Part shown: positions 21,018 to 37,069 of the stretch, in pieces | Numbering within the stretch: the stretch's first letter is position 1 | Layout of the letters: each line of letters starts with the position of its first letter | DNA from: an uncultured Chloroflexia bacterium | Lineage (GTDB): Bacteria > Chloroflexota > Limnocylindria > Limnocylindrales > CSP1-4 | NCBI GenBank assembly: GCA_963823925.1 | Contig: CAWGNI010000002.1 | Coordinates: 153,292-217,291, forward strand | Length of the DNA: 64,000 bases | Reading direction: 5' to 3' | The notes under the pieces: generated by a model | Told to the model about the DNA's origin: nothing | Database searches by the model: none | Seen by the model: the letters and a program-made list of their open reading frames with translations, nothing else | Position numbers and translations under genes: made by a program

Positions 21018-22559
21018 ATGACACAGACGGCAGCACCAGACAGCAGCGATGTGACCAGGCCGGAGACGATCAGGGTGAGCCATTGGATCGACGGACGGGT
21101 CGTCGTCGGGTCCTCTGGGCGGGAGGGCCCGGTGTACGACCCGGCCACCGGTCAGGTGACGCGTCACGTCGACTTCGCGTCCATCGAGGAAGTGGGGACC
21201 GCCGTCGCGGCGGCCAAGGCTGCCTTGCCGGGTTGGCGCTCGACCTCGCTGTCCAAGCGGACCGACATCATGTTCAAGATCAGGAACCTGGTCGAGGCCA
21301 ACCGCAAGGAGATCGCGGCGTTGCTGACGGCCGAGCACGGCAAGGTCCCGTCGGACGCCCTCGGCGAGATCGCCCGCGGGATCGAGAACCTCGAATTCGC
21401 CTGCGGCATCGCCAGCCTGCTCAAGGGCGGCTACTCGGAGCAGGTCTCCGGCGGCGTCGATGTGTACCAGATCCGCCAGCCGCTCGGGGTCGTCGCGGGG
21501 ATCACCCCGTTCAACTTCCCGGCGATGGTCCCGATGTGGATGTTCGCGACCGCGATCGCAGCCGGCAACACGTTCATCCTCAAGCCGTCCGAGAAGGACC
21601 CATCCGCGTCCAACTTCCTGGCCGAGCTGCTGGCCGAGGCCGGCGTCCCGGACGGGGTCTTCAACGTCGTCCACGGCGACAAGGTGGCGGTCGATGCCAT
21701 CCTCGCCCATCCGGACGTCGCCGCGGTCTCGTTCGTCGGTTCCACGCCGATCGCCCGATACATCTACGAGACCGGCACGAAGGCTGGCAAACGCGTCCAG
21801 GCGCTCGGTGGGGCCAAGAACCACATGATCGTCCTGCCCGACGCCGACATCGAGATGGCCGCGGATGCGGCGGTCTCGGCCGGATACGGCTCGGCCGGCG
21901 AGCGTTGCATGGCGATCGCCACGATCGTCGCGGTCGGTGCCGTGGCGGACCCACTCGTCGAGGCGATCAAGCTCCGCCTGCCCAGGGTCAACGTCGGACC
22001 GGGCACGGATCCCAAGGCCGAGATGGGCCCGCTGGTCACTCGCCAGCATCGGGACAAGGTCGCCTCGTACCTCGACAGCGGCCCGGCCCAGGGCGCAACG
22101 GTCGTCGCCGATGGGCGCGAGCATCCGCTCTACGGCAGCTCCGACGGGTTCTTCCTGGGCGTTTCGCTCATCGATCACGTCACGCCGGCGATGGACGCCT
22201 ATCGCGACGAGATCTTCGGTCCGGTCCTGACGGTCATGCGGGTCGACACCTACGACGAGGCGGTCAAGCTCATCAACGATAACCCGTACGGCAACGGCAC
22301 GGCGATCTTCACCCGCGACGGCGGAGCCGCGCGTCAGTTCCAGTTCGACGTGAACGCCGGGATGGTCGGGATCAACGTGCCGATCCCGGTGCCCGTCTCC
22401 TACTACAGCTTCGGTGGCTGGAAGAGCTCGCTCTTCGGCGACCTGCACATGTACGGCCCGGAGGGTGTCCAGTTCTACACCCGGGCCAAGATCGTGACGG
22501 CTCGCTGGCCGGACCCGGGCACGAGCAAGGTCGACCTCGGCTTTCCCCGGACCCGCTAG
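21018..22559 (+). CDS. mmsA: methylmalonate-semialdehyde / malonate-semialdehyde dehydrogenase (CoA-acylating)
   Basis: Aldehyde dehydrogenase superfamily with MmsA-type features and a catalytic Cys region (GERCMA). The ORF is intact. The larger antisense ORF over it is a GC shadow. Confidence 0.9.
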   Translation: MTQTAAPDSSDVTRPETIRVSHWIDGRVVVGSSGREGPVYDPATGQVTRHVDFASIEEVGTAVAAAKAALPGWRSTSLSKRTDIMFKIRNLVEANRKEIAALLTAEHGKVPSDALGEIARGIENLEFACGIASLLKGGYSEQVSGGVDVYQIRQPLGVVAGITPFNFPAMVPMWMFATAIAAGNTFILKPSEKDPSASNFLAELLAEAGVPDGVFNVVHGDKVAVDAILAHPDVAAVSFVGSTPIARYIYETGTKAGKRVQALGGAKNHMIVLPDADIEMAADAAVSAGYGSAGERCMAIATIVAVGAVADPLVEAIKLRLPRVNVGPGTDPKAEMGPLVTRQHRDKVASYLDSGPAQGATVVADGREHPLYGSSDGFFLGVSLIDHVTPAMDAYRDEIFGPVLTVMRVDTYDEAVKLINDNPYGNGTAIFTRDGGAARQFQFDVNAGMVGINVPIPVPVSYYSFGGWKSSLFGDLHMYGPEGVQFYTRAKIVTARWPDPGTSKVDLGFPRTR

Positions 22560-22565
22560 GGGCCA

Positions 22566-23480
22566 TCACACCGGGCGGCTGCGTCGTCTCGAGAGCGCGG
22601 CGATGTCGGCCGGACCGGTCCCGCAGCAGCCGCCCAGCCAGGTCGTGCCGATCCGGCCAAACCGACCGCATCGGGGTCGAATGCCCGCCGGCGTCGGCGA
22701 CCCATTGCCGTTCCGTCGCGTCCCAGCGATCCCCTCCGTTCGGGTAAGCGATGAGGGGTGCGTCACTCACGGCCCTCGCCTCGGGCGCTTGCCAGCAGGT
22801 CCGGCAGATAGCGTGGCGCCGTGCAATTGACGCCGATCGCGAGGACCGTGGGTGCGTCCCCGAACGCGACGGCATCCTCGATCGGCTCCCCGGCGGCCGT
22901 CGTCTCGCCATCGCGGCATGCGTAGCTCAGCCAACCGCGGGCACCGAGCTCGCCCAGCAACGCGACGACGACATCCGCCTCGCGGATCGTCGGGATCGTC
23001 TCGACCGCAAGCAAGTCGGCCCCGGCTTCGAGCAGCACCTCCAGCCGGGGCCGGTGAAAGGCCGCGAACCCGGCCCTCGTCAGATGGTAGTCACCGCGGT
23101 ATTCGGATCCGTTGGCGAGCATCGCCCCGTACGGACCGACCGAGCCGGCCACCAGCAAGGGTCGATCGTCGCCCGTCTCCGCCCGATACCGGTCGCGCGC
23201 CCGCTGCGCGAGTACGACGCTCGATCGGATGAGGGAGAGCGCCGCGTCGCGCTCGAACCCGGCCCCGCGAAACCCTCGATCGAGGCCTGATAGCTAGCCG
23301 TCGTCGCGACCTGGGCTCCGGCCCGGAAATAGGCCAGGTGGACGTCCTCGATCGCATCCGGATCCGTCTGGAGCAGGCGGGCCGACCAAAGGTGGTCCGA
23401 CAGATCGTGGCCGCGAGCCATCAACTCCGTCGCCAGCCCACCGTCGAGGACGGCGACGTCGTCCGGGACCGGGCCAGCTC
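22566..23480 (-). pseudogene. mmuM: homocysteine S-methyltransferase (MmuM/BHMT family) disrupted by at least 3 frameshifts
   Basis: The homology runs across three reading frames. The N-terminal part ([17 protein letters not shown]...ASIEGF) is in one frame. The middle ([10 protein letters not shown]...GVNCTAPRY) is in a second. The C-terminal parts (PLIAYPNGGDRWDA and TTWLGGCCGTGPADIAAL) are in two further frame segments. No start codon is evident either. Confidence 0.7.
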
Positions 23481-23492
23481 GGCGAGTCCACC

Positions 23493-24890
23493 TCAGTGCG
23501 TTCGGACGTAGTCTGCCGCGGATCGCTTGATGAATCGGCCGTGGCCTCGGCGGCCCGTGAACTCCCCATCGCGGACGATGACCGAGCCGCGCGACAGGAC
23601 GATATCGCTCCCGCCCTGGACGGAGCGCCCTTCGTAGCACGAATAGTCGACGGCCATGTGGTGAGTCGCTGCCGAGATCGTATGTCGCCGGTCGGGGTCG
23701 TAGATGACGATATCGGCATCGGAGCCGACCGCGATGGCACCCTTCTTCGGGTACATCCCGAACAGCTTGGCCGGCGCCGTCGCGATGATCTCCACCCACC
23801 GCTCCCGGGTGATCCGGCCACCGACGACGCCGCCGTCGTGGAGCAGATCCAGCCGGTCCTCGACGCCAGGCAGGCCGTTCGGGACCTTGCGGAAGTCATC
23901 GCGGCCGAGGTCCTTCTGGCCGTGGAAGTCGAACGGACAGTGGTCCGTGGCCACCAGCTGGAGGTCGTCCCTGACCAGACCCGTCCAGAGCTCCTCCCAG
24001 TGATCCTTCGTGCGGAGGGGAGGGGAGCACACGAACTTGGCGCCCTCGAACCCGTGGCCCAGGTCGTCGAGCGACAGGAACAGGTACTGCGGGCAGGTCT
24101 CGGCGAACACGTCCGACCCCCGATCGCGGGCATCCCGCACGACGTCGAGCGCCTCCCGGGCGGACAGGTGGACGAAGTAGACGGGCGCTCCGGCCGCCTC
24201 CGCCAGGCGGATGACCCGGTTCGTCGCCTCGCCCTCGAAGACGGGCATCCGGGCCAGCCCGTGACCGATCGGGTCGGTCGTGCCGGCCGCCACGGTCTGC
24301 TCGGCCACGACGTCGATGGCCATCCCGTTCTCCGCGTGCATCATGATCAGTCCGCCATTCGCGGCCGTCTGCTGCAGCGCCCGGAAGATCGCCCCATCGT
24401 CGCTGTAGAAGACGCCCGGGTAGGCGGTGAACAGCTTGAAGTCCGGCACCCCCTCGGCCACCAGCCCGTCCATCTCGGCCAGCGTGTCGTCATTGACGTC
24501 GCTCATGATCATGTGGAAGCCGTAGTCGGTCACGGCATTGCCCTCGGCCTTGGCGTGCCAGGTGTCGAGACCGTCGCGCAGGGACGCTCCCCGCGACTGG
24601 ACGGCGAAGTCCACGATCGTGGTGGTGCCTCCGAAGGCTGCCGCGCGCGTGCCCGACTCGAAGGTGTCCTTGGCGAACGTCCCGCCGAAGGGCAACTCCA
24701 TGTGGGTGTGGACGTCGATCCCGCCCGGGATGACGTACTTTCCGGTCGCGTCGATCGTCTCGTCGGGCTCGGCACCCGATGCGAGGAGATCGGTCCCGAT
24801 CCGCGCGATCGTCTCGCCATCGATCAGGACGTCGGCGACGGTCGAACCGTCGGCCGTGACGATCGTCCCGCCGGTGATCAGGGTGCGCAT
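23493..24890 (-). CDS. dihydropyrimidinase / D-hydantoinase (cyclic amidohydrolase)
   Basis: 465 aa of the metal-dependent amidohydrolase family with the HxH motif ([13 protein letters not shown]), a carboxylated-Lys region and hydantoinase-family similarity end to end. Confidence 0.85.
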
Positions 24891-24923
24891 CGGTCCCTCC
24901 TCGCCAGGTCGGCCTCTATCAGG

Positions 24924-25166
24924 TCAGGACCAGCATCGTAGGCGATGTGGGAGGAACGCCGCTGCGCCGGGGCGGCGGGTCAGCCCAGACCGAGTCGCCG
25001 GCGCCAACGGAGCGAGGATCCGAAGCCAGAGCGCCCCGACCAGGCCGCACGCCGTGATCGCGAGGCCGACGGCCAGCAGGCTCTCGGCCTGGACTCGGCG
25101 CCGGGTCCGCTTGGCGCGCACGCCTTCATCACCCCACCAGGGATCGCGGCCACGTCGTCGGATCAT
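24924..25166 (-). CDS. possible small membrane protein (hypothetical)
   Basis: About 80-aa ORF with one TM (LLAVGLAITACGLVGALWL) in the 400-bp gap between the LLM and hydantoinase genes. Support is weak. Confidence 0.2.
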   Translation of the reverse strand: MIRRRGRDPWWGDEGVRAKRTRRRVQAESLLAVGLAITACGLVGALWLRILAPLAPATRSGLTRRPGAAAFLPHRLRCWS

Positions 25167-25295
25167 CGCCCACCTCCAGGACGGCCCGGCAGCGACCGCT
25201 GGATCGACGGCGGCTGCGACGGGCGGACGACCATCGTCGCCGATACCGGGTACCGGTCGCCACCCTGACATCCGGCCCATCCGCCCCGACGACGA

Positions 25296-26290
25296 CTAGC
25301 CGCGCAGGCCCGGGATGACGTCCCGCCCGTACGCCTCGAGCTGGGCTTCCTCATCGCCGCTCATGAGATACAGGTTGAACTGGTCGACGCCGGCATCCGC
25401 CAGTTCGTGCAACTTGGCGACGTGCTCGTCGACCGAGCCGAGGATGCAGAACCGGTCCGCGACCTCGTCGCCGACGAAGGCGGCATTGGATGAACCGACC
25501 TCGGCGTGGTGCTCGTAGTCGTAGCCGGACCGATCGGTGACGTATCCGGTCAGGCTGGCCGGGAGCTGCTCGCGCGGGTACTTGTTGACGAGGTCGACGA
25601 CGTGGTTGGAGACGAGCGCCGGGAACCATCGAGTCCGCTCGCGGCCGACGTCGCGCGGTCCGACGTAGGCGGCGGCCGCCGACTGGACCTTGATCGTCGC
25701 CGGGTCCCGACCGGCCGCCGCGGCGGCCTCGCGGACCTGTCCGACGAACCAGCGGATGAGGTCCGGATCCGCGAGCTGGAGGATGATCCCGTCGGCGACC
25801 CGCCCGGCCATCTTGAGGGCCATGGGTCCATAGCCCGCGACCCAGACGGGCAGGGTCCAGTCGCCGGTCCAGGGCAACCGCAATTCGGTCCCCTCGTACT
25901 CGATGTCGCGCCCTTCGACGAGCGCCTTGATGGCGACGATCGCCTCCTCAAGGGTCGCCATCGTCGTCGGTGGCTTGCCGAGCATGCGTCGCGCCGAGTC
26001 GCCGCGACCGATCCCGAGATCCATCCGCCCGTCGGAGATCTCGTTCAGGGTCGCCAGAGTCGAGGCGGTGACCGACGGTTCGCGGGTCGCCGGGTTGGTG
26101 ACGCATGTGCCCAGGCGGAGCCGGGTCGTCGCCTCCGCCATCAGGGTCAGGAGGACGTACGGCTCACGCCAAAGGACGTGGGAGTCGAAGAGCCACGCGT
26201 AGTCGAACCCTGCCGACTTCGGCCTGGCGGGTCAGCGCCAGGGTTCGCTCGATCGAATGCTCAGGCTTGAGGGTGAAACCGAACTGCATG
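25296..26290 (-). CDS. LLM-class (luciferase-like) flavin/F420-dependent oxidoreductase, interrupted by a +1 frameshift near 26213
   Basis: The N-terminus MQFGFTLKPEHSIERTLALTRQAEV lies in one frame (26290..about 26215). The remainder (FDYAWLFDSHVLWREPYVLLTLMAEATT...) lies in the next frame down to 25296. One extra G in gtcgGcagg explains the shift. Confidence 0.7.
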
Positions 26291-26299
26291 ACAACGATC

Positions 26300-27163
26300 C
26301 TACGGGCGGGTCAGATCGGCGTAGGCGTCGGGCCGACGGTCACGGAAGAATTGCCAGGTGTTGCGGACCTCCGCGATCCGGTCCATGTCGAGGTCCCGGA
26401 CGATGAGCTCCTCGTCATGGGCGCTGCCGAGCTCGCCGACGAACTGGCCGCGCGGGTCGACGAAGTAGCTCTGGCCGTAGAAATCGTCGTCGCCGATCTC
26501 GGCCTCGATCCCGACCCGGTTGATCGTGCCGACGTAGTAGCCGTTGGCGATGGCGTGACTGACCTGCTCGATCCGCCACAGGTGCTCGGACAGCCCGCGC
26601 GATGTCGCGCTCGGGATCAGGACGATCTCCGCCCCGTTCAACCCGAGCGCTCGTGCTCCCTCCGGGAAGTGGCGGTCATAGCAGATATAGACGCCGATCT
26701 TGCCGACCGCCGTCTCGAACACGGGATAGCCGAGGTTGCCCGGCCGGAAGTAGAACTTCTCCCAGAACCCCTTGACATGGGGGATGTGGGTCTTCCGGTA
26801 CTTCCCCAGGTACGTTCCGTCCGGATCGATGACCGCCGCGGTGTTGTAGTAGATCCCCGCGGCCTTCTCATCTACCTCGTACATCGGGGCGACGACGACC
26901 ATCCCGGTCTGCTTGGCGAGATCCTGCATCCGCTTCGTCGTCGGGCCGTCCGGGATCAGCTCCGTGTAGCTGTAGTACTGGGCGTCCTGGACCTGGCAGA
27001 AGTACGGCCCGTAGAACAGTTCCTGGAACAGGATGAACTGGGCCCCCTGCTTGGCCGCCTCGTGCGCGTGGGCTTCGTGCTTCTGGATCATCGATTCCTT
27101 GTCGCCGGTCCAGGTGGCCTGGACGAGCGCACCGCGGATCATTCGAGCCATGTCGCGGATCAC
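26300..27163 (-). CDS. carbon-nitrogen hydrolase family enzyme: beta-ureidopropionase / N-carbamoyl-amino-acid amidohydrolase
   Basis: Nitrilase-superfamily fold with a catalytic Cys region (GVYICYDRHFPE) and an E-K-C triad context. It is adjacent to the dihydropyrimidinase gene. Confidence 0.75.
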   Translation of the reverse strand: MIRDMARMIRGALVQATWTGDKESMIQKHEAHAHEAAKQGAQFILFQELFYGPYFCQVQDAQYYSYTELIPDGPTTKRMQDLAKQTGMVVVAPMYEVDEKAAGIYYNTAAVIDPDGTYLGKYRKTHIPHVKGFWEKFYFRPGNLGYPVFETAVGKIGVYICYDRHFPEGARALGLNGAEIVLIPSATSRGLSEHLWRIEQVSHAIANGYYVGTINRVGIEAEIGDDDFYGQSYFVDPRGQFVGELGSAHDEELIVRDLDMDRIAEVRNTWQFFRDRRPDAYADLTRP

Positions 27164-27223
27164 CTCGCTTGGCTGTCGGGTCGGTCCAAGTGGCCTGAGG
27201 GTACACCGCTGCGGGCGGGCGGA

Positions 27224-27613
27224 TCAGTCGGGGATCGCGTCCGGACGGCGGCGGCTGTACCACTCGGTGAACTCGCGGCAGCGGCCGTCCCCGTCGAACC
27301 GGCACACGAAGATATTCGCGAACTCGCGGTCGACCGCCGCTCGATCGTCGGTCAGATACCGGGTCCGGCCGTGGGCGACGCAGGTGTCGCCATCGATCGC
27401 GAGGACCTCGTAGTCGGCCTCCCACGAGCCGGGCGCATCCGGTTCGACCAGCCACGCAGCGACGACCGCGGGCCGACCGACGACCGCTTCGCTGAAGGGG
27501 TCGAACGCGTAGCGGATCTCAGGGCTGAACAGGTCCCCGATGGCGAGCGGGTCGAGCAGTCGCCAGGCATCGACATACCGATCGAGCCAGGACTTGAAGG
27601 CGGCGTGATCCAT
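27224..27613 (-). CDS. NTF2-like / SnoaL-like domain protein (paralog of 50330..50719)
   Basis: 129 aa. WLDRYVDAW...DPLAIGDLFSP...VVGRPAVVAAWL...RFDGDGRCREFTEWY aligns residue by residue with the protein at 50330..50719. Confidence 0.6.
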   Translation of the reverse strand: MDHAAFKSWLDRYVDAWRLLDPLAIGDLFSPEIRYAFDPFSEAVVGRPAVVAAWLVEPDAPGSWEADYEVLAIDGDTCVAHGRTRYLTDDRAAVDREFANIFVCRFDGDGRCREFTEWYSRRRPDAIPD

Positions 27614-27677: not shown

Positions 27678-28334
27678 TCAGCGGGCGAGCTTGGTCGACA
27701 TGCCGGTGTGGAGGAACGCCGTGAACCGAGCGGTCACGGCGAAGACCCGATGGACCCGGACGCCGCGCGTCAGCGTGCTGATCGCCTTGCCCTTGCCGAT
27801 ATAGATGCCGACGTGGGTGCCGCCGCCCCAGATCACCAGGTCACCGATCTTCGGGTGATGCCGGCTGGCCTTGCCGTGCGCCTTGAACCAGTGGTACAGC
27901 GAGCTCGCCGAGCGAAGCCGCGCGGCCCGGATCGCGTGACCGTCGTCTGCCCGCTTGTAGGCGAAGCGGACCAGGCCGGAGCAGTCGAACTTGTTTGGCC
28001 CGTCGGCGCCGTATCGCCACGGATCCCCGATCTTGTTCCGGGCGATCCGGATGATCTGCTGGGCCTCGGTCATCGTCGGCGCCGGGGCGACCGGTGGCGG
28101 GTCGACCGGTGGCGGATCGACCGGTGGCGGATCGACCGGTGGCGGATCGACCGGTGGCGGCACGATCGTCCCGTCGTCGGTCGGGCCGAGGATCGGGTCG
28201 GTTGGGGCGAGGATCGGGTCGGCCGCGACCGGGGTCGAAGCGGCGGCCGGCGCCGAAGCGACCGGGCTCAGGGCGATGGCGAGGGCAAGCGCCGCGGGGA
28301 TCGAGGCGCGAGCGCCCAGACGGATGGTTCGCAA
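27678..28334 (-). CDS. NlpC/P60 family peptidoglycan endopeptidase with signal peptide and (PPVD)n proline-rich repeat
   Basis: NlpC/P60 catalytic Cys (FDCSGLVRFAY) and His (GTHVGIYIG). TTG start with a GAAGGAG RBS. The repeat is PPVDPPPVDPPPVDPPPVDPPPV. Confidence 0.8.
   Translation of the reverse strand: MRTIRLGARASIPAALALAIALSPVASAPAAASTPVAADPILAPTDPILGPTDDGTIVPPPVDPPPVDPPPVDPPPVDPPPVAPAPTMTEAQQIIRIARNKIGDPWRYGADGPNKFDCSGLVRFAYKRADDGHAIRAARLRSASSLYHWFKAHGKASRHHPKIGDLVIWGGGTHVGIYIGKGKAISTLTRGVRVHRVFAVTARFTAFLHTGMSTKLAR
28088..28162. repeat. 15-bp tandem repeat (gtcgaccggtggcgg x5) encoding the PPVD proline-rich repeat inside the NlpC/P60 gene
   Basis: Direct reading: ggtcgaccggtggcg units repeated five times with one substitution (ggg/gga). 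Confidence 0.8.
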
Positions 28335-28614: not shown

Positions 28615-29571
28615 GTGACCAGCGCGACCGACGACCCCGCCGCACCGCTCATCATCGTGAATCCACGGGCGGCGCGACTCCACGCCGCGCACCACCGTCA
28701 CGACGTGGTGGACGGGGTCGTGCGAGCGGTACGCGCAAGGACCGGGGAGACACCCCGGGTGGAGATGGGCAGCCTCGAGGCCGCCCAGACGGCCCTCGAG
28801 GCGAGCGACAGGGCGAGCCTGGTGGTCGCCGTCGGTGGCGACGGGACCATCCGGCAGGCCGCCGCCGCCCTCGCCGGGCGCCCGGTCACATTGGCGATCG
28901 TCCCGGGCGGCACCGGGAACGTGATGGCGGGATCGCTGCGGATCCGTGGGATCGGCCCGGCCCTGGAGGTGATCCGGCACGGAGAACCGCGCACGATCGA
29001 CCTTGGGATGGCGCGCTGGGGCTCGCCCGGCACGACCGAGCCCGCGGGCGAGTCGATCTTCCTGGTGGCCTGCGGCATGGGCCTCGACGCGCGGATCATG
29101 GCCGCCGCAGAGCATGAATGGAAACGCCGGATGCGATTCGGGGCCTACGTCGGTGCGGCTCTCAAGACCCTGCCTCGGCTCCGGCCCGCCGATTTCCAGA
29201 TCGACGCGGATGACGAGCACCTGGAGATCCGCGGCTACCTCGCGCTCGTCGCCAATGCCGGTGAACTGGTACCGGGGCGGATCGGACCGCGACGACGGAT
29301 CGACCCGTCCGACGGGCATCTCGACCTCATCGTCGTCGGCGGTGCCCATCCGGTCGCAGGCCTGCAGGCCGCAGCGCGCCTCATGCGGGCGCCCGGCGAC
29401 CTCGGTGGCAGCGTCATCCGGCGGGCGGTCGACCGCGTCCGGATCGCCTCGGATCCATCGGAGCCGATCGAGATCGACGGCGACCATCGAGCCGCCGGGC
29501 TGGCTCGAGGCGACGACCGTGCCACACGCGCTCCGCGTGCTCACGCCGAGACCTTGACGCCGACCGCCTGA
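28615..29571 (+). CDS. diacylglycerol kinase catalytic-domain family lipid kinase (YegS/BmrU-like)
   Basis: DAGK_cat motifs (VVAVGGDGT, IVPGGTGN). Confidence 0.7.
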   Translation: MTSATDDPAAPLIIVNPRAARLHAAHHRHDVVDGVVRAVRARTGETPRVEMGSLEAAQTALEASDRASLVVAVGGDGTIRQAAAALAGRPVTLAIVPGGTGNVMAGSLRIRGIGPALEVIRHGEPRTIDLGMARWGSPGTTEPAGESIFLVACGMGLDARIMAAAEHEWKRRMRFGAYVGAALKTLPRLRPADFQIDADDEHLEIRGYLALVANAGELVPGRIGPRRRIDPSDGHLDLIVVGGAHPVAGLQAAARLMRAPGDLGGSVIRRAVDRVRIASDPSEPIEIDGDHRAAGLARGDDRATRAPRAHAETLTPTA

Positions 29572-29594: not shown

Positions 29595-30029
29595 GTGGGC
29601 CAGATGACCTCCTCCAGGACGGCCACGGCGGGCATCGGGATCCTGGTGGTCGTCGTCGCGACGGCCGTCCGCGCCTTCTTCGCCGTCGTCGGCATGCTGA
29701 TCAGTGCCGGGGTCATGGATGAGAACGGACTTGCGCCCCTCTCCCCGGTCCCGGTCTACCCGTTGGACTCCGCGGCCGGCATCGTCTCGATGCTCCTGCT
29801 GGCCGGGGTCCTGGCGATGAGCCTTGCGAGCATCTGGGGCCTCGTCCGGAGACGATCGTGGGGCTGGACGCTGGCGATCGTGACGTCCGGGCTGATGCTG
29901 ACGTTGAGTCTGGGGTGGTGGGCTGCGGGTGAACCCCACTACCTGTCGATGTTCATCAATTCGGTAGCCGTCTTCTATCTGAATCAGCGGGACCTGCGGG
30001 CCGTGTTCGGGATCGGTCGCGGTGACTGA
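29595..30029 (+). CDS. membrane protein (hypothetical, 4 TM)
   Basis: 144-aa hydrophobic ORF. Its end overlaps the next gene start by 8 nt. Confidence 0.4.
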   Translation: MGQMTSSRTATAGIGILVVVVATAVRAFFAVVGMLISAGVMDENGLAPLSPVPVYPLDSAAGIVSMLLLAGVLAMSLASIWGLVRRRSWGWTLAIVTSGLMLTLSLGWWAAGEPHYLSMFINSVAVFYLNQRDLRAVFGIGRGD

Positions 30030-31845
30030 GGAACGCGACCTCGAACTGCTCCGCCGCCACGAGCCGATCCTGCGGTTCACCCAGGGCGAGTTGTTCTTCC
30101 CGATGGATGCCGAAACGTACGTCGCGAACTGCGACCTCCTCGAGGGGCCTACCCTGCGTGAGGCCAGGGTCGTCCTGCCCTCGGGTCGTCTCGACGTGGA
30201 CAGTCTGGCGGCGACCGCGGCGCCGCCTCCGGGACAGGCTCAATTCCTCCGCTTCGCGCCCAGGCCGATGGGTTCACTCGAACTCGCCCGCTGGCGCAAC
30301 CGGCCCGAACGGCCGCGGTTCTCTGCGCCGGGTCGCCTGGCGCGGGTCGGACTCATCGCGCGCCTCGTGGACGCGGGGCTCGTCATGTCCCTCCTGCTTC
30401 GAGGTCGCGTCCCCGGCGGGACCACGGCCGCCGCGTCGGAACGGTACGAGCGGATCCGCTCCGGTGATCCCCGGGTCGTCTATCACGGTCGGGTCGTGCG
30501 AGAAGGTCGCTGGGTCGTCCTTCACTACATGTTCCTGTATGCGATGAACGACTGGCGGTCCACCTTCGACGGCGCCAACGATCACGAAGCCGATTGGGAG
30601 CAGTGCTTCGTCGTCTGTGAATCGCGGGACGATGGCGAGATCCGACCCGCCTGGTTCTGTGCCGCTGCCCACGACGAGAAGGGAGATGACCTGCGCCGGC
30701 GCTGGGACGACCCGCGCCTGACCCTGGTCGATGGTCACCCGGTCGTCTATCCGGGCGCCGGATCGCACGCCACCTACCTGGAGCAAGGCGAGTACATCAT
30801 GCGCCTGCCCTTCCCGGGTGAGCGAAACCTGCACGGCCCGCTCGACCTGATCCGGCGGATCTGGCGAGATACGCTCGATCAACCCGATCCCGGAGACCTG
30901 GCCATGACCGCCCGGCGAGCCCTGAGCGTCCCGTTCGTGGACTACGCGCGTGGCGACGGCCGGGTCGTCGGGCCCGGCAGCGACGCGCCGTGGACCCCGC
31001 ACCTGATCGGCGACGACGACGGCTGGGTCGACCGGTACACCGGCCTGTGGGGCCTCGATACCGGCGACCGCTTCGCCGGCGAGCGGGCGCCGGCAGGGCC
31101 GAAGTACACGCGGACCGGGAGCGTTCGCCAGTCGTGGCACGACCCGCTCGGATTCTCGGGTCTCGACAAGGTGGCGCCCCCATCCCAGGCCATCCCGGCA
31201 CTGCGTGCGCGGATCGAGGCGCTCGAGGCGACCAGATCGCGTCTGCGCTCCGAAACCGCCGAACTCGAACGGTCGTTGCCCCTCCTCGAGGCGGAGGTGG
31301 CCGCCGTGCGGGCCACGCCTGGCGCAGACACCTATCGGGACGCGCGAGCGACCGAGCTGGCCGATGGCGCCGCTCGACTGGCCGGGTTGCGCGTGGAGAC
31401 CGTTGAAGTCGGCACGGCGGTCACGGCGGCGCAGGCCAGGGTGATCGAGTTGCAGGCTGGTCGCCTCGACGACCCGCGTGCCCATCTCCGCCACGCCGCG
31501 GAACCTGAACCGCCGATCGTGATCCAGCGTCGCGCGCTCGCCGAAACGTGGGCGGCGTTCAGTGTCGGCCTGCTCATCGCCGGCCTCGCGGTCATCGTCT
31601 GGCTGCGGCTGTTGCCGCCCGTCCTGGCCGTGGTCGCCCTGTTCGGGTCGTACCTCGCGATCGAGTCCTTTTTCCGTAGGGACATCCAGATCCTGGTACT
31701 GCGACTGACCCTTGCCCTGGCCTTCGTCAGCGTCGTCATCCTGGTCGTCACCTTCCTGCGCGAGGTCGTGCTTCTCGGGCTGCTCGCCCTCGGCATCCTG
31801 TTGATCCTCGACAATCTCGGCGAACTGCGGCGGCGCCTCAGTTAA
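30022..31845 (+). CDS. hypothetical protein: about 380-aa N-terminal globular domain, coiled-coil segment, C-terminal 3-TM anchor
   Basis: 607-aa ORF with uniform codon usage. The middle region (EALEATRSRLRSETAELERSLPLLEAEVAAV) is coiled-coil-like. The C-terminal hydrophobic helices include (AAFSVGLLIAGLAVIVWL, LLGLLALGILLIL). I recognise no known catalytic motif. Confidence 0.5.
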   Translation: MTEERDLELLRRHEPILRFTQGELFFPMDAETYVANCDLLEGPTLREARVVLPSGRLDVDSLAATAAPPPGQAQFLRFAPRPMGSLELARWRNRPERPRFSAPGRLARVGLIARLVDAGLVMSLLLRGRVPGGTTAAASERYERIRSGDPRVVYHGRVVREGRWVVLHYMFLYAMNDWRSTFDGANDHEADWEQCFVVCESRDDGEIRPAWFCAAAHDEKGDDLRRRWDDPRLTLVDGHPVVYPGAGSHATYLEQGEYIMRLPFPGERNLHGPLDLIRRIWRDTLDQPDPGDLAMTARRALSVPFVDYARGDGRVVGPGSDAPWTPHLIGDDDGWVDRYTGLWGLDTGDRFAGERAPAGPKYTRTGSVRQSWHDPLGFSGLDKVAPPSQAIPALRARIEALEATRSRLRSETAELERSLPLLEAEVAAVRATPGADTYRDARATELADGAARLAGLRVETVEVGTAVTAAQARVIELQAGRLDDPRAHLRHAAEPEPPIVIQRRALAETWAAFSVGLLIAGLAVIVWLRLLPPVLAVVALFGSYLAIESFFRRDIQILVLRLTLALAFVSVVILVVTFLREVVLLGLLALGILLILDNLGELRRRLS

Positions 31846-31933: not shown

Positions 31934-33268
31934 ATGGGCATCACGACGGAAACCGGCGCCATGACCAGCGACGAGATCGTCGCGCTCTCGCGCCAGCACA
32001 CGTTCTTCTCCTGGTCCATCCAGGGCGCCATCGACCCGATCGCGATCGACCATGCCGAAGGCGTCTACCTGTACACCCCGGAGGGTGAACGGATCCTCGA
32101 CTTCAACAGCCAGTTGATGTCGGTCAACATCGGGCACGGCGATCGCCGGGTCATCGACGCGATCGCCGACCAGGCGACCAAGCTCCAATTCGTCCAGCCC
32201 GCCTTCACGACGGAGGTCCGGGCCCGTCTTGGCGCGAAGCTGGCGGAGATCCTGCCCGGCGACATGGACAAGGTCTTCTTCACGCTCGGCGGTGCCGAAG
32301 CGGTCGAGAACGCGATCAAGCTGGCCCGCCACGCGAGTGGTCGACACAAGATCCTTGCTCGATATCGCTCCTATCACGGGGCGACGCTCGGCGCGATGAC
32401 CCTGACCGGCGATCCACGCCGATGGGCGAACGAGCCCGGGATCGTCGGCGTCGTTCGCTATCCCGACACCCATCGTTGGGGCGAAGCCGAGCCCCGGCCG
32501 GTCGCGGAGAGCCTCCAGGGGCTCGAGGACGTCATCCGCTACGAAGGCGCCAAGTCGATCGCGGCCGTCTTCCTCGAGACGATCGTCGGCACCAACGGGA
32601 TCCTGATCCCGCCCGACGGCTATATCGCCGGTGTCCGTGAGATCTGCGACCGCCACGACATCCTGATGGTCGCCGATGAGGTGATGGCCGGGTTCGGCCG
32701 GACCGGGCGCTGGTTCGCCATCGATCACTGGGGCGTCACCCCGGACCTGATGACGATGGCGAAGGGCCTGACCAGTTCGTACCTGCCACTCGGCGCGGTG
32801 GCCATGCGCCACCACATCGCCGAGAAGTTCGAGACCCAGATGTTCTACGGCGGCCTCACCTACAGCAGTCACCCGATCAGCCTGGCCGCCTCCCTCGCGA
32901 CCATCTCGGTCTACGAAGAGGACGGCCTGATCGAGCACGCGGCCCGGCTCGATCCGGTCATGCGCGAACACCACGAGCGCCTTGCGGCCCGGCACCCGAG
33001 CGTCGGCGCGACCCGCAATCTCGGCCTGTTCGGCATCATCGATCTCGTTCGCAGTCGCGACCCGTGGACGCCACTCACACCGTTCAATGGGACGTCGGAC
33101 GAGATGAAGGCGGTCGGCAAGTACCTGCGTGAGCACGGCCTGTACACCTTGCTCCCCAACAACTCGATCCATACGAACCCGCCCCTGTCGATCACCGAGG
33201 AGCAGCTGGCGGAGGGCTTCGAGATCATCGATCGCGCGCTCGAGATCGCCGACCGGGCGATCGCCTGA
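31934..33268 (+). CDS. class III (omega) aminotransferase, beta-alanine/omega-amino acid:pyruvate transaminase-like
   Basis: PLP class III fold with the lysine region (MTMAKGLTSSYLPLGAV). Full length is about 444 aa. Confidence 0.85.
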   Translation: MGITTETGAMTSDEIVALSRQHTFFSWSIQGAIDPIAIDHAEGVYLYTPEGERILDFNSQLMSVNIGHGDRRVIDAIADQATKLQFVQPAFTTEVRARLGAKLAEILPGDMDKVFFTLGGAEAVENAIKLARHASGRHKILARYRSYHGATLGAMTLTGDPRRWANEPGIVGVVRYPDTHRWGEAEPRPVAESLQGLEDVIRYEGAKSIAAVFLETIVGTNGILIPPDGYIAGVREICDRHDILMVADEVMAGFGRTGRWFAIDHWGVTPDLMTMAKGLTSSYLPLGAVAMRHHIAEKFETQMFYGGLTYSSHPISLAASLATISVYEEDGLIEHAARLDPVMREHHERLAARHPSVGATRNLGLFGIIDLVRSRDPWTPLTPFNGTSDEMKAVGKYLREHGLYTLLPNNSIHTNPPLSITEEQLAEGFEIIDRALEIADRAIA

Positions 33269-33299: not shown

Positions 33300-34244
33300 T
33301 TGACAGCCGCCAGCGGTTCCCTCCGCCGGGGCGCCCCGCAGGCGACGGTCGTCGCAGCCGCCGGCCGGACGCGTGCGCGCCGATGGACCGGCATCGCCAT
33401 CGTCCTGATCCTGCTGCTGGTCGCCTGGGAGGTGGCCAAGTGGTTCGGCGGGGACCCGTGGCGCCTGCACGGGACGGTCGCCGGCATCCGGATCGACTAT
33501 GAGCACGTTCCGCCCCTCGACTGGCGGATCGCCAACGACCTGTCGCTGCCGCACGTCTGGGACATCGCCCGGGCGTTCGTCGACCCCGCACAGCGCGGTG
33601 GGGCGCCGCTCGGCGTCGTCCTGACCGGTCAGGCCGTCTTCACCTTCGGCGAGGCGCTTGCGGGGTTCGCGCTCGGGGCGCTGCTCGGTCTGGTGCTGGG
33701 GATCCTGTTCGTCCACTCGCGGCTGGCTGAGCGAGCGTTCGTCCCGTACGTGGTCGCCTCCCAGACGGTGCCGATCCTGGCGATCGCGCCGCTCGTCGTG
33801 GTGGCGCTCAAGGCGGATTGGCTTTCGGTCATGGCGGTGGCGATGTACCTCACGTTCTTCCCGGTCACCATCGCCTCGATGCGCGGGTTGCGGGCGTTCG
33901 ATCCGCGCTCGCTCGAGCTCTTCCGTTCGTATGCGGCCACCCGCCGGCAGATCCTCTGGCAGCTCCGCCTGCCGACGTCGATCCCGTACCTGTTCTCCGG
34001 CTTCCGGATCGCGGCCGCCGCCTCGGTCATCGGGGCCATCATCGGCGAGCAGACGGCCGGTGTCGCGTCCGGGCTCGGGAGCGCGATCATCAACTACAAC
34101 CAGTACTACACCTCCGGGCCTGAGCGGCTCTGGGCGACCGTCGTCATGTGCGCGCTGGTCGGGTTCGCGTTCGTCGGTGCGGTCAACCTCGCCGAGCGGA
34201 TCGTCACCCGTGGCCGCTATCGATCCGTAGGGGACCTGGTATGA
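33300..34244 (+). CDS. ABC transporter permease (NitT/TauT family)
   Basis: Multi-TM protein with an EAA-like loop (RQILWQLRLPTSIPYLFSGFRIAAAASVIGAIIGE). The start is uncertain, with a TTG at 33300. Confidence 0.65.
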   Translation: MTAASGSLRRGAPQATVVAAAGRTRARRWTGIAIVLILLLVAWEVAKWFGGDPWRLHGTVAGIRIDYEHVPPLDWRIANDLSLPHVWDIARAFVDPAQRGGAPLGVVLTGQAVFTFGEALAGFALGALLGLVLGILFVHSRLAERAFVPYVVASQTVPILAIAPLVVVALKADWLSVMAVAMYLTFFPVTIASMRGLRAFDPRSLELFRSYAATRRQILWQLRLPTSIPYLFSGFRIAAAASVIGAIIGEQTAGVASGLGSAIINYNQYYTSGPERLWATVVMCALVGFAFVGAVNLAERIVTRGRYRSVGDLV

Positions 34245-35098
34245 CGGCGGAGCGGCCATCGGGGGAGGCGACACCGATCGTGGTCGAGGCGGTGGGCGTC
34301 GGGAAGGTGTTCGGCGCCGGAGCAGGGTCGGTGACGGCGGTCGATGGGGTTGACCTGGCGATCCGCGAGGGCGAATTCGTCTCGCTCATCGGCCCGTCCG
34401 GGTGCGGCAAGTCCACGCTCCTTCGCCTCATCGCGGACCTGACCCACCCGACCAGCGGGACCCTGGCCATCAACGGCAAGCCGGCGGCTCGGGCGAGGTC
34501 CGATCGCGATTACGGGATGGTGTTCCAGGCTCCGATCCTGATGGACTGGCGGACCGTCGCGAAGAACATCGAGCTGCCGCTCGAGATCATGGGGTATCCG
34601 ACCGACGAACGACATCGGCGGGCGCTCGACCTGCTGAAGCTGGTCGAGCTCGAGGCCTTCGCCGACCGATACCCGTGGCAGCTGTCCGGCGGGATGCAGC
34701 AGCGCGTCGCGATCGCACGGGCGCTGTCCTTCGATCCGAAGCTGCTGCTGATGGACGAGCCCTTCGGAGCGCTCGACGAGATGACCCGTGAGCGCATGAA
34801 CGCGGAACTGATGCGGATCTGGCGACGGACCGGGACGACGATCGTGTTCGTCACGCACAGCATCCCGGAGGCGGTCTTCCTGTCTTCCCGGGTCGTCGTG
34901 ATGTCGGCACGACCGGGGCGGGTCTCGCAGGTGATCGACATCGACCTCCCCGTCGAACGTGGGGTCGAGACTCGCGAATCCGAACCCTATTTCCGGCTCG
35001 TCACGCGAGTCCGCGAGGCGCTTCGGCAGGACGAGTCGTCCGATCCCGGGCCGGACGACACCACGGCCCGGCGCGTCCGCGCCGAGGGGCTGTCGTGA
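34241..35098 (+). CDS. ABC transporter ATP-binding protein (NitT/TauT family)
   Basis: Walker A (GPSGCGKST), signature (LSGGMQQR) and Walker B (LLLMDEPFGALD). ATGA overlap with the upstream permease. Confidence 0.85.
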   Translation: MTAERPSGEATPIVVEAVGVGKVFGAGAGSVTAVDGVDLAIREGEFVSLIGPSGCGKSTLLRLIADLTHPTSGTLAINGKPAARARSDRDYGMVFQAPILMDWRTVAKNIELPLEIMGYPTDERHRRALDLLKLVELEAFADRYPWQLSGGMQQRVAIARALSFDPKLLLMDEPFGALDEMTRERMNAELMRIWRRTGTTIVFVTHSIPEAVFLSSRVVVMSARPGRVSQVIDIDLPVERGVETRESEPYFRLVTRVREALRQDESSDPGPDDTTARRVRAEGLS

Positions 35099-35871
35099 TG
35101 GTGTCGACCGCGCGCGAGTGGCTGCCCGCCGTCGCGGTGTTCGTCATCGTCCTGGTCGCCTGGGAGGTCGGCTTCCTCGTCCTTGGCGTCCAGTCGTTCC
35201 TGATCCCACGTCCGAGCGTGATCAGTGAACAGCTCGTCGCCGACTGGGGGACGCTCGCACGAGGCCTGGCGTTCACCGGGACCGAGGCCGTTGCCGGATT
35301 GATCGTCGGGGTCGCGCTGGGCACGGGCGCCGGTCTGGCGACGTCACGCTGGGCGAGTGCGCGCGAGGTCCTGCTTCCGGTGGCGATCGGGGCGAGCACG
35401 ATCCCGATCATCGCCTTCGCGCCGATCACCTTGAACTGGTTCGGTCCGGAAAGCCTCCTCCCGCGGATCACGATCGTCGCGGTGATGGTCTTCTTCCCGG
35501 TCATGGTCAACACGATCCGAGGACTCACGAACGTCGATCCGGGCGGGCTCGAACTGCTCGCGTCGTACGCCGCAAACGACCGCCAGACACTGACCAAGCT
35601 GCGCGCGCCGAACGCGCTCCCGTACTGGTTCACGGCGCTGAAGATCGCCACGACCCTGAGCGTCATCGGCGCCGTCGTCGGGGAGTTCTTCGGCGGGCCG
35701 CTCTACGCCCTCGGGATCTACATCACGCTCCAGACCGGAGCCAGCAAGTATCCGGCTGCGTGGGCAGCCATCGTCCTCGCGTGTGTCCTGGGGATCGTCC
35801 TGTACCTCGCCGCCGTGGTGCTCGAGCGCGTCACGATCCCCTGGTACACGGCTCGCGAAACGGCCCGATGA
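35095..35871 (+). CDS. ABC transporter permease (second, NitT/TauT family)
   Basis: 258-aa multi-TM protein with an EAA-like loop. Its start overlaps the ATPase stop. Confidence 0.75.
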   Translation: MMVSTAREWLPAVAVFVIVLVAWEVGFLVLGVQSFLIPRPSVISEQLVADWGTLARGLAFTGTEAVAGLIVGVALGTGAGLATSRWASAREVLLPVAIGASTIPIIAFAPITLNWFGPESLLPRITIVAVMVFFPVMVNTIRGLTNVDPGGLELLASYAANDRQTLTKLRAPNALPYWFTALKIATTLSVIGAVVGEFFGGPLYALGIYITLQTGASKYPAAWAAIVLACVLGIVLYLAAVVLERVTIPWYTARETAR

Positions 35872-35968
35872 CGGTCGCCCCGGTGGCCTACCATCCGTCG
35901 TCAGGGTGTCGGCGGGGTCGGCTTCGGGTGGCGAGCCGCCGACGAGCGAGTGAGGAGGAGCGATCGAC

Positions 35969-37069
35969 ATGAAACTGTCTCGCAAGCTGGTCGGCCTGTC
36001 GGCCGCGGCCGTGCTGGTACTCGCGGCGTGCTCGAGCAGCGGGTCGTCCGCCGCCGCGCTGACGCCGCTCAAGTTCCAGCTCCAGTGGGTCGCCCAGTCC
36101 CAGTTCGCCGGCTACTACGCGGCGGTCGACCAGGGCTATTACAAGGACGCCGGCCTCGACGTCACGCTGCTGCTGGGTGGACCGAACATCAACAACGTCC
36201 AGGTCGTGGCGACCGGTGGGGCGGACATCGGGACGGCGTGGCTTCCGAACATGCTCCAGTCGCGCGAGGGCGGGACGGATCTCGTCTCGATCGCCCAGAT
36301 CTTCCAGCGCTCGGGCACGCGGATGGTGTCGTTCACGGGCGCGAACATCACGACCCCTGCCAGCATGGATGGCAAGAAGATCGGCAGCTGGCTGGGCGGC
36401 AATGAGCCCGAACTGTTCGCCGCATTGACCAAGGCCGGGCTCGATCCGACCACGCAGAACATCATCAAGCAGAACTTCGACATGTCCGGCCTCCTCAACG
36501 GCGACCTCGATGTCGCCCAGGCGATGATCTACAACGAGTACGCCCAGGTCCTCGAGGCGAAGGACCCGGCCACCGGGGAGCTGTACAAGCCGAGCGACCT
36601 CAACCTGGTCGACTTCAACGACCCATCGGTCGGGACGGCGATGCTCCAGGACCAGATCTTCGCCACCGATGCGTGGCTCAAGACCGGCAATAATGCCGAT
36701 GTCGCGGAGAAGTTCCTGGAGGCGACCTTCAAGGGTTGGATCTACTGCCGTGACAACGCCCAGAAGTGCGTCGACATCGTGCTCGCCAAGGGGTCGCAGC
36801 TCGGGGCCAGCCATCAGGCCTGGCAGATGAACGAGATCAACGGGCTCATCTGGCCGTCACCGAACGGGATCGGCCTGCTGGACCAGACGCTCTACGACCA
36901 GACGGTTTCGATCGCCACCACCTACGGCGTCCTCCAGGCCGCGCCCGCCGATGGGGCGACCCGGACGGACCTCGCCCAGAAGGCCCTCGACGCGCTCGGC
37001 AGCTCGGTCGACACGAAGGGGATGGGCTTCACGAAGGCGACGGTCACGCTGACCGAGGGCGGCAACTAG
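35969..37069 (+). CDS. ABC transporter substrate-binding lipoprotein (NMT1/THI5-like, NitT/TauT family)
   Basis: Lipobox (LAAC|SSS) and GAGGAGG RBS. About 330-aa periplasmic binding fold of the NMT1/THI5 type, which is often pyrimidine or HMP related. Confidence 0.8.
   Translation: MKLSRKLVGLSAAAVLVLAACSSSGSSAAALTPLKFQLQWVAQSQFAGYYAAVDQGYYKDAGLDVTLLLGGPNINNVQVVATGGADIGTAWLPNMLQSREGGTDLVSIAQIFQRSGTRMVSFTGANITTPASMDGKKIGSWLGGNEPELFAALTKAGLDPTTQNIIKQNFDMSGLLNGDLDVAQAMIYNEYAQVLEAKDPATGELYKPSDLNLVDFNDPSVGTAMLQDQIFATDAWLKTGNNADVAEKFLEATFKGWIYCRDNAQKCVDIVLAKGSQLGASHQAWQMNEINGLIWPSPNGIGLLDQTLYDQTVSIATTYGVLQAAPADGATRTDLAQKALDALGSSVDTKGMGFTKATVTLTEGGN

Follow-up and report, generated by a model that had tools for sequence, protein, structure and literature searches.

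The question raised by this locus is how a gene cluster that seems equipped for the later steps of reductive pyrimidine degradation might carry out the first, the reduction of uracil or thymine. Judged by gene content, the region is rather probably a reductive uracil/thymine catabolic gene cluster. A sequence-only reading of the window (the whole 64-kb stretch of DNA analyzed here) had listed five minus-strand genes and proposed that one of them, a luciferase-like (LLM) oxidoreductase gene, encodes a noncanonical dihydropyrimidine dehydrogenase. Profile scores bear out all five as genes rather than chance ORFs, and the coding frames of the cluster have a third-position GC of 0.88 to 0.95. That inventory overlooked a frameshift in LLM and a small ORF in a gap, and left out a flanking aminotransferase, a (methyl)malonate-semialdehyde dehydrogenase (MMSDH), and an NMT1-type ABC transporter, which extend the pathway of the cluster. 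The features are as follows.

21018..22559, plus strand: CoA-acylating (methyl)malonate-semialdehyde dehydrogenase (MMSDH), 513 aa, step 5 (TIGR01722)
22590..23478, minus strand: homocysteine S-methyltransferase (mmuM) pseudogene (PF02574, PRK09485)
23493..24890, minus strand: dihydropyrimidinase (D-hydantoinase), 465 aa, step 2 (TIGR02033 equivalog)
24924..25166, minus strand: conserved small ORF, basic at its N-terminus and with a single predicted membrane helix (tblastn conservation)
25296..26289, minus strand: LLM-class F420-dependent oxidoreductase of family TIGR03842, 330 aa after correction, candidate step 1 uracil/thymine reductase (NCBIfam profile)
26300..27151, minus strand: CN-hydrolase, 283 aa, putative beta-ureidopropionase (N-carbamoyl-beta-alanine amidohydrolase), step 3 (PF00795)
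27224..27613, minus strand: SnoaL_2/NTF2-like protein, 129 aa, accessory (PF12680)
31934..33268, plus strand: class III omega-aminotransferase, 444 aa, putative beta-alanine/beta-aminoisobutyrate transaminase, step 4 (PF00202, PRK06062)
33300..37069, plus strand: NitT/TauT-type ABC transporter (permease, ATPase, permease, NMT1-type binding protein), candidate pyrimidine importer (PF09084)

The minus-strand genes run in the order SnoaL-like, CN-hydrolase, LLM, small ORF, dihydropyrimidinase, and decayed mmuM. Their spacing differs from the gaps of 12 to 60 bp and single 400-bp gap described earlier: SnoaL and CN-hydrolase are ∼72 bp apart, CN-hydrolase and LLM 10 bp, LLM and the small ORF 129 bp, the small ORF and dihydropyrimidinase 33 bp, and dihydropyrimidinase and mmuM ∼14 bp. 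The 400 bp ahead of the hydantoinase are not empty but contain the small ORF. At least 13 Limnocylindria loci have it, by tblastn at the protein level, in the same place between LLM and dihydropyrimidinase, and it is a called 61-aa gene in two of the related loci (L001 and L004). It has conserved motifs (RDPFW and ACGLTAALWLR.LAPLA) and, judging from its sequence, a probable membrane helix; Pfam and NCBIfam profiles gave no match.

The outermost minus-strand genes are peripheral. SnoaL (36 bits against PF12680; 93% identity to its L001 orthologue) had been placed at the head of the operon, which overstated its role: of 64 related loci, only 26 have it upstream of LLM, and it is therefore not a core member. 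Its supposedly close paralog near 50330 does exist (50330-50719) but is only 46% identical. The mmuM remnant was correctly recognized: fragments in three frames span 22590-23478 and differ from the intact L001 gene by at least nine indels, the central fragment matching PF02574 and PRK09485. Because mmuM matches occur in only 10 loci, including the window, it too does not belong to the core.

Standard families of the reductive pyrimidine pathway (PydA or PreT/PreA, PydB dihydropyrimidinase, PydC beta-ureidopropionase, and beta-alanine aminotransferase) account for steps 2 to 5, putatively so for steps 3 and 4. The step 2 assignment made earlier holds: dihydropyrimidinase scores 585.7 bits against TIGR02033 (cutoff, 393.25) and is 90% identical to the L001 orthologue. 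For step 3, the CN-hydrolase (221 bits against PF00795) belongs to the beta-alanine synthase/carbamoylputrescine amidase clade. Its top NCBIfam match, aguB, is under the cutoff (267 versus 410 bits), no equivalog model was passed, and among solved structures it comes closest to N-carbamoylputrescine amidase (205 bits) and beta-alanine synthase/beta-ureidopropionase (177 and 169 bits); gene context favors the beta-ureidopropionase role. On the flanks, the omega-aminotransferase (297 bits against PF00202; 530 bits against the PRK06062 subfamily, cutoff 472) occurs in 35 of 44 related loci, and MMSDH (723 bits against TIGR01722; cutoff, 448.5), which is convergent with the minus-strand cluster, lies downstream in 25 of 44. 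By family assignment, both appear to fit a beta-alanine/beta-aminoisobutyrate route. The transporter's binding protein scores 130 bits against PF09084 (NMT1), its other subunits being assigned via the Pfam annotation of L001; its substrate is presumably a pyrimidine base.

In the pathway that we propose, this transporter would bring in a pyrimidine base, and the LLM enzyme, with F420H2, would reduce the C5=C6 double bond to give 5,6-dihydrouracil or dihydrothymine, thereby substituting for the Fe-S flavoprotein dihydropyrimidine dehydrogenase. Dihydropyrimidinase would then open the ring, and the CN-hydrolase would remove the carbamoyl group to yield beta-alanine or beta-aminoisobutyrate, whose carbon the class III aminotransferase and CoA-acylating dehydrogenase would convert to acetyl-CoA or propionyl-CoA. 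The cluster would thus differ from the known pathway in having an F420-class TIM-barrel enzyme instead of an NAD(P)H-dependent Fe-S flavoprotein dehydrogenase.

Does LLM belong to a family that could do this? Even with its truncated 281-aa ORF, it scores 378.8 bits against TIGR03842 (cutoff, 295.45), an uncharacterized F420 class that NCBIfam ranks as a hypothetical equivalog, and 182 bits against PF00296 in Pfam. Its next-best profiles are Mer and other F420-class LLMs, and FMN-class models reach at most 40 bits; the choice between F420 and FMN subfamilies suggested earlier as a check therefore falls to the F420 class. A search of full-text literature, the PDB, and NCBIfam (June 2026) found no characterized TIGR03842 member. 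The AlphaFold2 model of a 94%-identical orthologue (pLDDT, 87.3; pTM, 0.88) has a luciferase-like (β/α)8 barrel, the fold modeled for LLM, and both sequence and Foldseek comparison place LLM nearest to four solved F420 enzymes: Mer, FGD2, Fgd, and Adf.

Mer is the closest solved relative (137 to 140 bits, 26 to 32% identity, TM 0.79 to 0.84), shares the length and barrel of LLM, and binds F420. We nevertheless rejected the identification of LLM as Mer: it scores below the cutoffs of the Mer models (126.5 versus 276 bits and 111.1 versus 348.7 bits), the conserved Mer Glu6 (the site of a deposited E6Q mutant) aligns with Thr6, and segment 207-270 of LLM, which carries family-invariant motifs (WF..V.NH..D.V..Y and R.GYDY..H), does not align. 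To our knowledge, the LLM-bearing organisms considered here do not carry out methanopterin-based methanogenesis. RutA likewise has a luciferase-like TIM barrel, acts on uracil, and occurs with RutR, but is similar at the superfamily level only; BLASTP against the E. coli protein gave 30.8 bits over ∼100 residues, and we rejected an identity as RutA or another FMN-dependent monooxygenase. RutA opens the ring oxidatively with FMNH2 and O2 and depends on RutB-F, whereas the cluster encodes none of these. Counting against the proposed reaction, we know of no well-studied F420 LLM enzyme that acts on an enone-like C=C bond, the substrates being alcohols, carbonyls, and iminium groups; LmbY, an example of the LLM-type F420 ene/imine reductases, is a precedent.

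As sequenced, no uninterrupted LLM frame of ∼330 aa covers the whole profile. The ORF at 25296-26141 spans TIGR03842 positions 51-328 alone, and codons 1 to 24 (MQFGFTLKPEHSIERTLALTRQAE...), from an ATG at 26289, are put in a different frame by a single inserted nucleotide near 26216 (GAAGTCGG here versus GAGG-CGG in five aligned relatives). Once corrected, the protein is 94% identical to intact 330-aa homologues at 100% coverage. Either the insertion is a sequence error or step 1 was lost very recently in this genome. It is possible, though doubtful, that the cluster is a decaying relic here in which reductive pyrimidine catabolism is nonfunctional, with both LLM and mmuM (with its many indels) as pseudogenes. 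However, LLM is otherwise 92% identical in protein sequence to its nearest relative, with no other stops, and isolated 1-nt indels also occur within 21 kb in DAGK, LGT, and the small ORF, which are otherwise well conserved; we infer that consensus errors in a draft long-read assembly more typically produce such a scatter. In any case, decay would touch this copy only, not the function of the family.

Evidence for a shared pathway comes from relatives, where the operon comparison proposed earlier yielded a strong guilt-by-association signal that spans three phyla. In Chloroflexota, 64 of 66 informative species loci have CN-hydrolase directly upstream of LLM, and 40 of 46 have dihydropyrimidinase downstream. 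Four of five fully visible Streptomyces contexts contain a compact operon of CN-hydrolase (68% identity to the protein here), Aminotran_3, dihydropyrimidinase, and LLM genes. In Alphaproteobacteria (eight contexts, including Paracoccus, Leisingera, Pseudovibrio, Cohaesibacter, Hoeflea, a Roseobacteraceae genome, and L100, a MAG contig placed in this clade by LLM similarity only), all eight have a cofG-cofH-cofD-cofC-cofE-fno operon whose final enzyme gene is the LLM orthologue; in four, this operon abuts genes for dihydropyrimidinase and a nonhomologous M20 amidase, and five have a RutR-like regulator. L100 carries a single codirectional string (cofGHDCE-fno-LLM-RutR-like-M20 amidase-dihydropyrimidinase-NMT1 ABC transporter), and in Leisingera the operons are divergent (cof-fno-LLM-RutR-like and pntAB-aminotransferase-M20 hydrolase-hydA-NCS1 permease), the aminotransferase again being Aminotran_3; Pseudovibrio and Cohaesibacter resemble these two. 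In Cohaesibacter, a transporter related to that in the window (ATPase 54% and binding protein 33% identical) adjoins the dihydropyrimidinase and cof-LLM genes, and the L100 transporter is similarly arranged.

LLM, dihydropyrimidinase, and a carbamoyl-amidase are thus a minimal trio conserved across three phyla. Since step 3 switches between CN-hydrolase and M20 amidase while LLM and dihydropyrimidinase stay paired, the link appears to be at the level of the pathway. The gene identities and their conserved mutual association are established here. Counting against a reductase role, LLM occurs with no dihydropyrimidinase within 10 kb in S. venezuelae, Paracoccus, and Hoeflea, and, because the LLM clades of the three phyla are only 47 to 51% identical to each other, they may not share a function.

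The alphaproteobacterial operons add to the reductive pathway an entire F420 biosynthesis pathway and the NADPH:F420 oxidoreductase Fno. Against the proposal, we found no F420 biosynthesis gene in the 64-kb window, nor closer than 10 kb to LLM in any of 80 Chloroflexota loci, and the F420 capacity of this organism is therefore presumptive. Family and operon membership hint indirectly that LLM may use F420. Like known pyrimidine pathways, the alphaproteobacterial versions come with RutR-like regulators and nucleobase transporters; the regulators that follow LLM in three loci (L086, L091, and L097) are 40 to 46% identical to E. coli RutR, a uracil-responsive regulator.

It seems unlikely, given these neighborhoods, that LLM performs another redox step of the same pathway, as an F420 malonate-semialdehyde reductase comparable to RutE/YdfG, or reduces another cyclic ureide (a 5-substituted uracil, an orotate-like compound, or an unsaturated hydantoin subsequently opened by the "hydantoinase"). 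A carbonyl substrate would suit the structural neighbors Adf, Fgd, and FGD2, several characterized F420 LLMs being alcohol/carbonyl oxidoreductases, but a dedicated MMSDH is already in the neighborhood, the conserved trio comprises ring-opening and carbamoyl-removing enzymes alongside LLM, and no aminotransferase adjoins the genes in L100 and Pseudovibrio, so that no semialdehyde would be made locally. As for another ureide, dihydropyrimidinase is a D-hydantoinase of established broad range that accepts many cyclic ureides, while the RutR-like regulators and NCS1 permeases point to uracil or thymine itself. Another N-heterocycle is suggested by Chloroflexota uricolytic clusters, in which a luciferase-family F420 reductase for yanthine has been predicted (PMC12507026). 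There, an F420 LLM also stands in for a flavoprotein that dearomatizes an N-heterocycle before a ring-opening amidohydrolase; that pathway is one for uric acid/yanthine with SsnA, and the likeness is one of pathway logic to an enzyme itself only predicted.

The earlier statement that no canonical step 1 enzyme is encoded here agrees with our searches: neither a tblastn match to E. coli PreT nor a true PreA was found in the 64-kb window or in any of ∼95 loci. The sole PreA-like tblastn match, a PFOR-coupled "dihydroorotate dehydrogenase-like protein" (37150-38157), was rejected as PreA; it scores 410 bits against PRK07565 and 57 bits against the PreA model (cutoff, 335), and has NLYHLATDP where PreA carries its catalytic-Cys motif NFSCPQ. 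That step 1 is carried out by this protein or by a PreT/PreA or PydA encoded elsewhere, with LLM an unrelated or auxiliary neighbor, is quite improbable: the protein has a DHO_dh fold, 22% identity to PreA over 324 residues, and a gene beside transporter genes ∼9 kb from the cluster, and the search for PreT and PreA covered the window and those loci, but this gene and its PFOR are absent from every other locus examined, and the association of LLM survives rearrangement, insertions, and amidase-family replacement in three phyla, unlike what one would expect of a hitchhiker.

We therefore return to the TIGR03842 LLM as a candidate F420H2-dependent uracil/thymine reductase that replaces dihydropyrimidine dehydrogenase, an assignment of substrate and reaction that we consider fairly probable. 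The proposal made earlier is supported by the family, by the absence of PreT and PreA from the window, and by the gene neighborhoods, and LLM keeps its candidate status. Its pairing with pyrimidine genes in three phyla makes a new kind of pyrimidine reductase a testable idea. What F420 does in Proteobacteria and Chloroflexi was among the unanswered questions listed in a 2021 review (PMC8498797). We give roughly even chances to the broader proposal that TIGR03842 is a new, Fe-S-free class of F420H2-dependent dihydropyrimidine dehydrogenase and that pyrimidine catabolism is a principal physiological reason for cofGHDCE-fno in marine Alphaproteobacteria and for the enzyme in soil and freshwater Limnocylindria and many Streptomyces.

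The minus-strand pyrimidine operon proposed by the sequence-only reading (22566-27613) is essentially right, although that reading missed a frameshift, a small ORF, and the flanking genes. The GC content of the window is ~69%, and third-position GC marks the real reading frames, which include the following.

27224-27613, minus strand: SnoaL_2 protein
26300-27151, minus strand: CN-hydrolase (putative beta-ureidopropionase, step 3)
25296-26141, minus strand: LLM (luciferase-like F420-class oxidoreductase), ORF as read, between the CN-hydrolase and the small ORF
24924-25166, minus strand: small ORF, between LLM and the dihydropyrimidinase
23493-24890, minus strand: dihydropyrimidinase (TIGR02033 equivalog, 585.7 bits versus a cutoff of 393)
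22590-23478, minus strand: fragments of mmuM (homocysteine S-methyltransferase)
21018-22559, convergent with the cluster: CoA-acylating methylmalonate-semialdehyde dehydrogenase, MMSDH (TIGR01722, 723 bits)
31934-33268, plus strand, upstream of the cluster: class-III aminotransferase
33300-37069, plus strand, upstream of the cluster: ABC transporter with an NMT1-type binding protein

Together, the minus-strand genes, MMSDH, the aminotransferase, and the transporter cover the whole extended reductive pyrimidine route apart from step 1.

The SnoaL gene, described as leading the operon and having a close paralog at 50330, does exist, as does the paralog, but the gene is found in only 26 of 64 relatives and the two proteins share 46% identity. 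Directly upstream of it, in the same orientation, lies a gene for an NlpC/P60 protein (27681-28334, minus strand) with a tandem PPVD proline-rich repeat and six extra residues compared to L001, the closest relative. The 400-bp gap that had been noted before the hydantoinase gene is occupied by the small ORF; its product has a basic N terminus and one hydrophobic helix, matches no known family, and shows protein-level conservation across at least 13 related Limnocylindria loci (motifs RDPFW and ACGLTAALWLR.LAPLA), with a C terminus lengthened in the window by a 1-nt insertion at 24996. An intact mmuM follows the dihydropyrimidinase gene in only seven related loci.

Directly upstream of the aminotransferase and ABC transporter genes, and in the same orientation, are two overlapping plus-strand genes (29688-30026 and 30025-31845) encoding proteins of about 113 to 127 aa and 607 aa, neither matched by any Pfam or NCBIfam model; the 607-aa protein is also present in seven related loci. 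A uracil phosphoribosyltransferase gene (44857-45507, minus strand; PF14681, 253 bits), which belongs to uracil salvage, is unlinked to the cluster. The promoter and terminator scan gave nothing above shuffled expectation, and an Rfam search of 20 to 38 kb gave only one subthreshold match, to htlv_FSE (28772-28802, plus strand; 28.9 bits versus a gathering score of 45, E = 0.045), which lies inside the diacylglycerol kinase gene and is most likely due to chance.

As read, the LLM ORF covers profile positions 51 to 328 only. Its N terminus, MQFGFTLKPEHSIERTLALTRQAE, is encoded in a different frame from an ATG at 26289, 10 nt past the CN-hydrolase stop, and alignment with five relatives places one extra base near 26216 (window GAAGTCGG versus GAGG-CGG); the corrected protein of 330 aa aligns over its full length with an intact homologue at 94% identity. 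Comparison of 20 genes with L001 (86% DNA identity over 21 kb) revealed isolated 1-nt indels at 29487, 26216, 24996, and 19985; the genes whose frames they break (diacylglycerol kinase, LLM, the small ORF, and lgt) are all otherwise well conserved. Such isolated indels suggest a draft-quality consensus or very recent lesions, and the break in LLM may be of either kind. mmuM has at least nine indels relative to L001 and lies in pieces in three frames; it is therefore a true pseudogene. We rejected programmed frameshifting in LLM, as the site has neither a slippery sequence nor a stop-pause context; the upstream frame meets a stop 17 codons past the insertion.

That the window lacks a canonical enzyme for step 1 was borne out by our searches. 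Escherichia coli PreT had no match in the window, and neither PreT nor PreA was found in any of the Chloroflexota, Streptomyces, or alphaproteobacterial loci compared. The sole window match to E. coli PreA is a PRK07565 "dihydroorotate dehydrogenase-like protein" (37150-38157, minus strand), which scores 410 bits on PRK07565 and 57 bits on the PreA model, versus a cutoff of 335. Its start overlaps the stop of a 1,216-aa pyruvate:ferredoxin oxidoreductase (38154-41819, minus strand), to which it is translationally coupled. It lacks the NFSCPQ active-site motif of PreA as well as the Cys of the PreA/PyrD NxSCP motif, and it is not near LLM in any other fetched locus. We rejected it as the main explanation for step 1 on two grounds: other loci do not keep it with the cluster, and the PreA active-site motif is missing. 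The S. meliloti locus carries RutR, M20 hydrolase, hydA, and ABC transporter genes with PreT/PreA not adjacent, and therefore could not serve as a control for the canonical position.

The profile check upheld the assignment of LLM to the F420 type rather than to the FMN monooxygenases: it scored 378.8 bits on TIGR03842 (cutoff, 295.45), followed by Mer and a dozen other F420-class LLM models, while FMN-class monooxygenase models scored ≤40 bits. No structure has been solved within the TIGR03842 family; closest among solved proteins are Mer (137 to 140 bits), then Fgd, FGD2, and Adf. In the AlphaFold model of the 94%-identical orthologue (pLDDT 87.3, pTM 0.88), F420 enzymes likewise rank before FMN monooxygenases, with Mer at a TM score of 0.79 to 0.84. 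LLM is not Mer itself, since Mer models fall far below cutoff; Glu6 of Mer aligns to Thr6 of LLM, and LLM residues 207 to 270 do not align with Mer. RutA was rejected at 30.8 bits. A three-clade alignment (47 to 51% identity between clades) revealed the invariant motifs VTNP..R, GRGDS, WF...V.NH..D.V..Y, and R.GYDY..H (R253 to H261), the last of which sits in the model's only low-confidence loop (residues 254 to 267), which we take to be a mobile lid. In NCBIfam (June 2026), TIGR03842 is still a hypothetical equivalog without an assigned function, and source annotations of homologues give nothing beyond "TIGR03842 family" or use transferred names (such as Mer, Fgd, or phthiodiolone ketoreductase).

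Close homologues and 80 species-level loci were all Chloroflexota of the Limnocylindria type. The contig scan that we used relied on two clade-specific peptide patterns and matched Chloroflexota only; it is therefore uninformative across phyla, and sequences from other phyla came from a plasmid collection and from two additional protein searches. Among the 80 Chloroflexota loci, the CN-hydrolase gene lies upstream of LLM in 64 of 66 informative cases and the dihydropyrimidinase gene downstream in 40 of 46; an aminotransferase gene occurs in 35 of 44, and 25 of 44 have MMSDH. These associations are kept despite sensor-kinase or GGDEF/EAL genes inserted between partners.

Five Streptomyces contexts extend far enough to show both flanks. 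Streptomyces lavendulae and S. alboflavus have a compact operon of CN_hydrolase, Aminotran_3, dihydropyrimidinase, and LLM genes; Streptomyces sp. BHT-5-2 and S. rimosus have the same four genes, with CN_hydrolase and Aminotran_3 about 2 to 4 kb from dihydropyrimidinase-LLM; and in S. venezuelae LLM is not clustered. On an Actinacidiphila contig, which stops just upstream of LLM, NCS1 permease and PucR regulator genes lie downstream.

In all eight alphaproteobacterial contexts (L085, L086, L091 to L093, L097, L098, and L100, the last a 2.9-Mb metagenome-assembled contig assigned to this clade by LLM similarity only), a cofG-cofH-cofD-cofC-cofE-fno operon has the LLM orthologue as its final enzyme gene. 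In L100 this operon runs unbroken into genes for a RutR-like regulator, an M20 carbamoyl-amidase, a dihydropyrimidinase, and an NMT1 ABC transporter. The Leisingera operon is divergent from pntAB, aminotransferase, M20 hydrolase, hydA, and NCS1 permease genes, and that of a Roseobacteraceae genome is likewise divergent from the pntAB transhydrogenase genes, a pairing that suggests a dedicated supply line from NADPH to F420H2. Arrangements in Pseudovibrio, whose genes exceed the TIGR02033 (591 bits) and TIGR01879 (400 bits) cutoffs, and in Cohaesibacter are similar; the Cohaesibacter transporter shares 54% (ATPase) and 33% (binding protein) identity with that of the window. Dihydropyrimidinase and M20 amidase genes lie beside the operon in four of the eight contexts (L091, L092, L098, and L100) and a RutR-like regulator in five (L086, L091, L097, L098, and L100), with those of L086, L091, and L097 being 40 to 46% identical to E. 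coli RutR. A tblastn search with Paracoccus CofG/H/D/C/E and Fno found no F420 biosynthesis genes in the window or the 80 Chloroflexota loci; F420 production has been shown in Chloroflexi and Proteobacteria generally (PMC8498797).

From these contexts in three phyla, it follows that LLM travels with dihydropyrimidinase and carbamoyl-amidase, an association that holds despite changed gene order and two unrelated amidase families. We regard the gene identities and their association as established. This strong multiphylum gene context supports the earlier suggestion of LLM as a noncanonical candidate for step 1, and we consider it moderately probable that LLM acts as an F420H2-dependent uracil/thymine reductase; its substrate, reaction direction, and use of F420 we infer. 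Fno or another F420 reductase would charge F420 from NADPH, LLM would deliver a hydride to C6 of uracil or thymine with a proton going to C5, and dihydropyrimidinase, amidase, aminotransferase, and MMSDH would finish the route.

Full-text literature outside subscription-only journals yielded nothing linking F420 to pyrimidine reduction. The word "uracil" is absent from a 2021 F420 review, which counts what F420 does in Proteobacteria and Chloroflexi among the unanswered questions (PMC8498797), and a 2025 paper proposes an analogous, predicted-only role in the breakdown of uric acid for an LLM from Chloroflexota (PMC12507026). If the proposed function is correct, it would assign a role to an orphan family that is large and highly conserved, with matches in at least 584 species-level genomes from a single scan and hundreds more sequences in Streptomyces and Alphaproteobacteria. 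LLM would be a nonorthologous replacement of dihydropyrimidine dehydrogenase, which, to our knowledge, is otherwise thought universal for the reductive route. Pathway reconstructions that score such organisms as lacking pyrimidine catabolism would need correction, and F420 production by Proteobacteria and Chloroflexi would have a concrete explanation.
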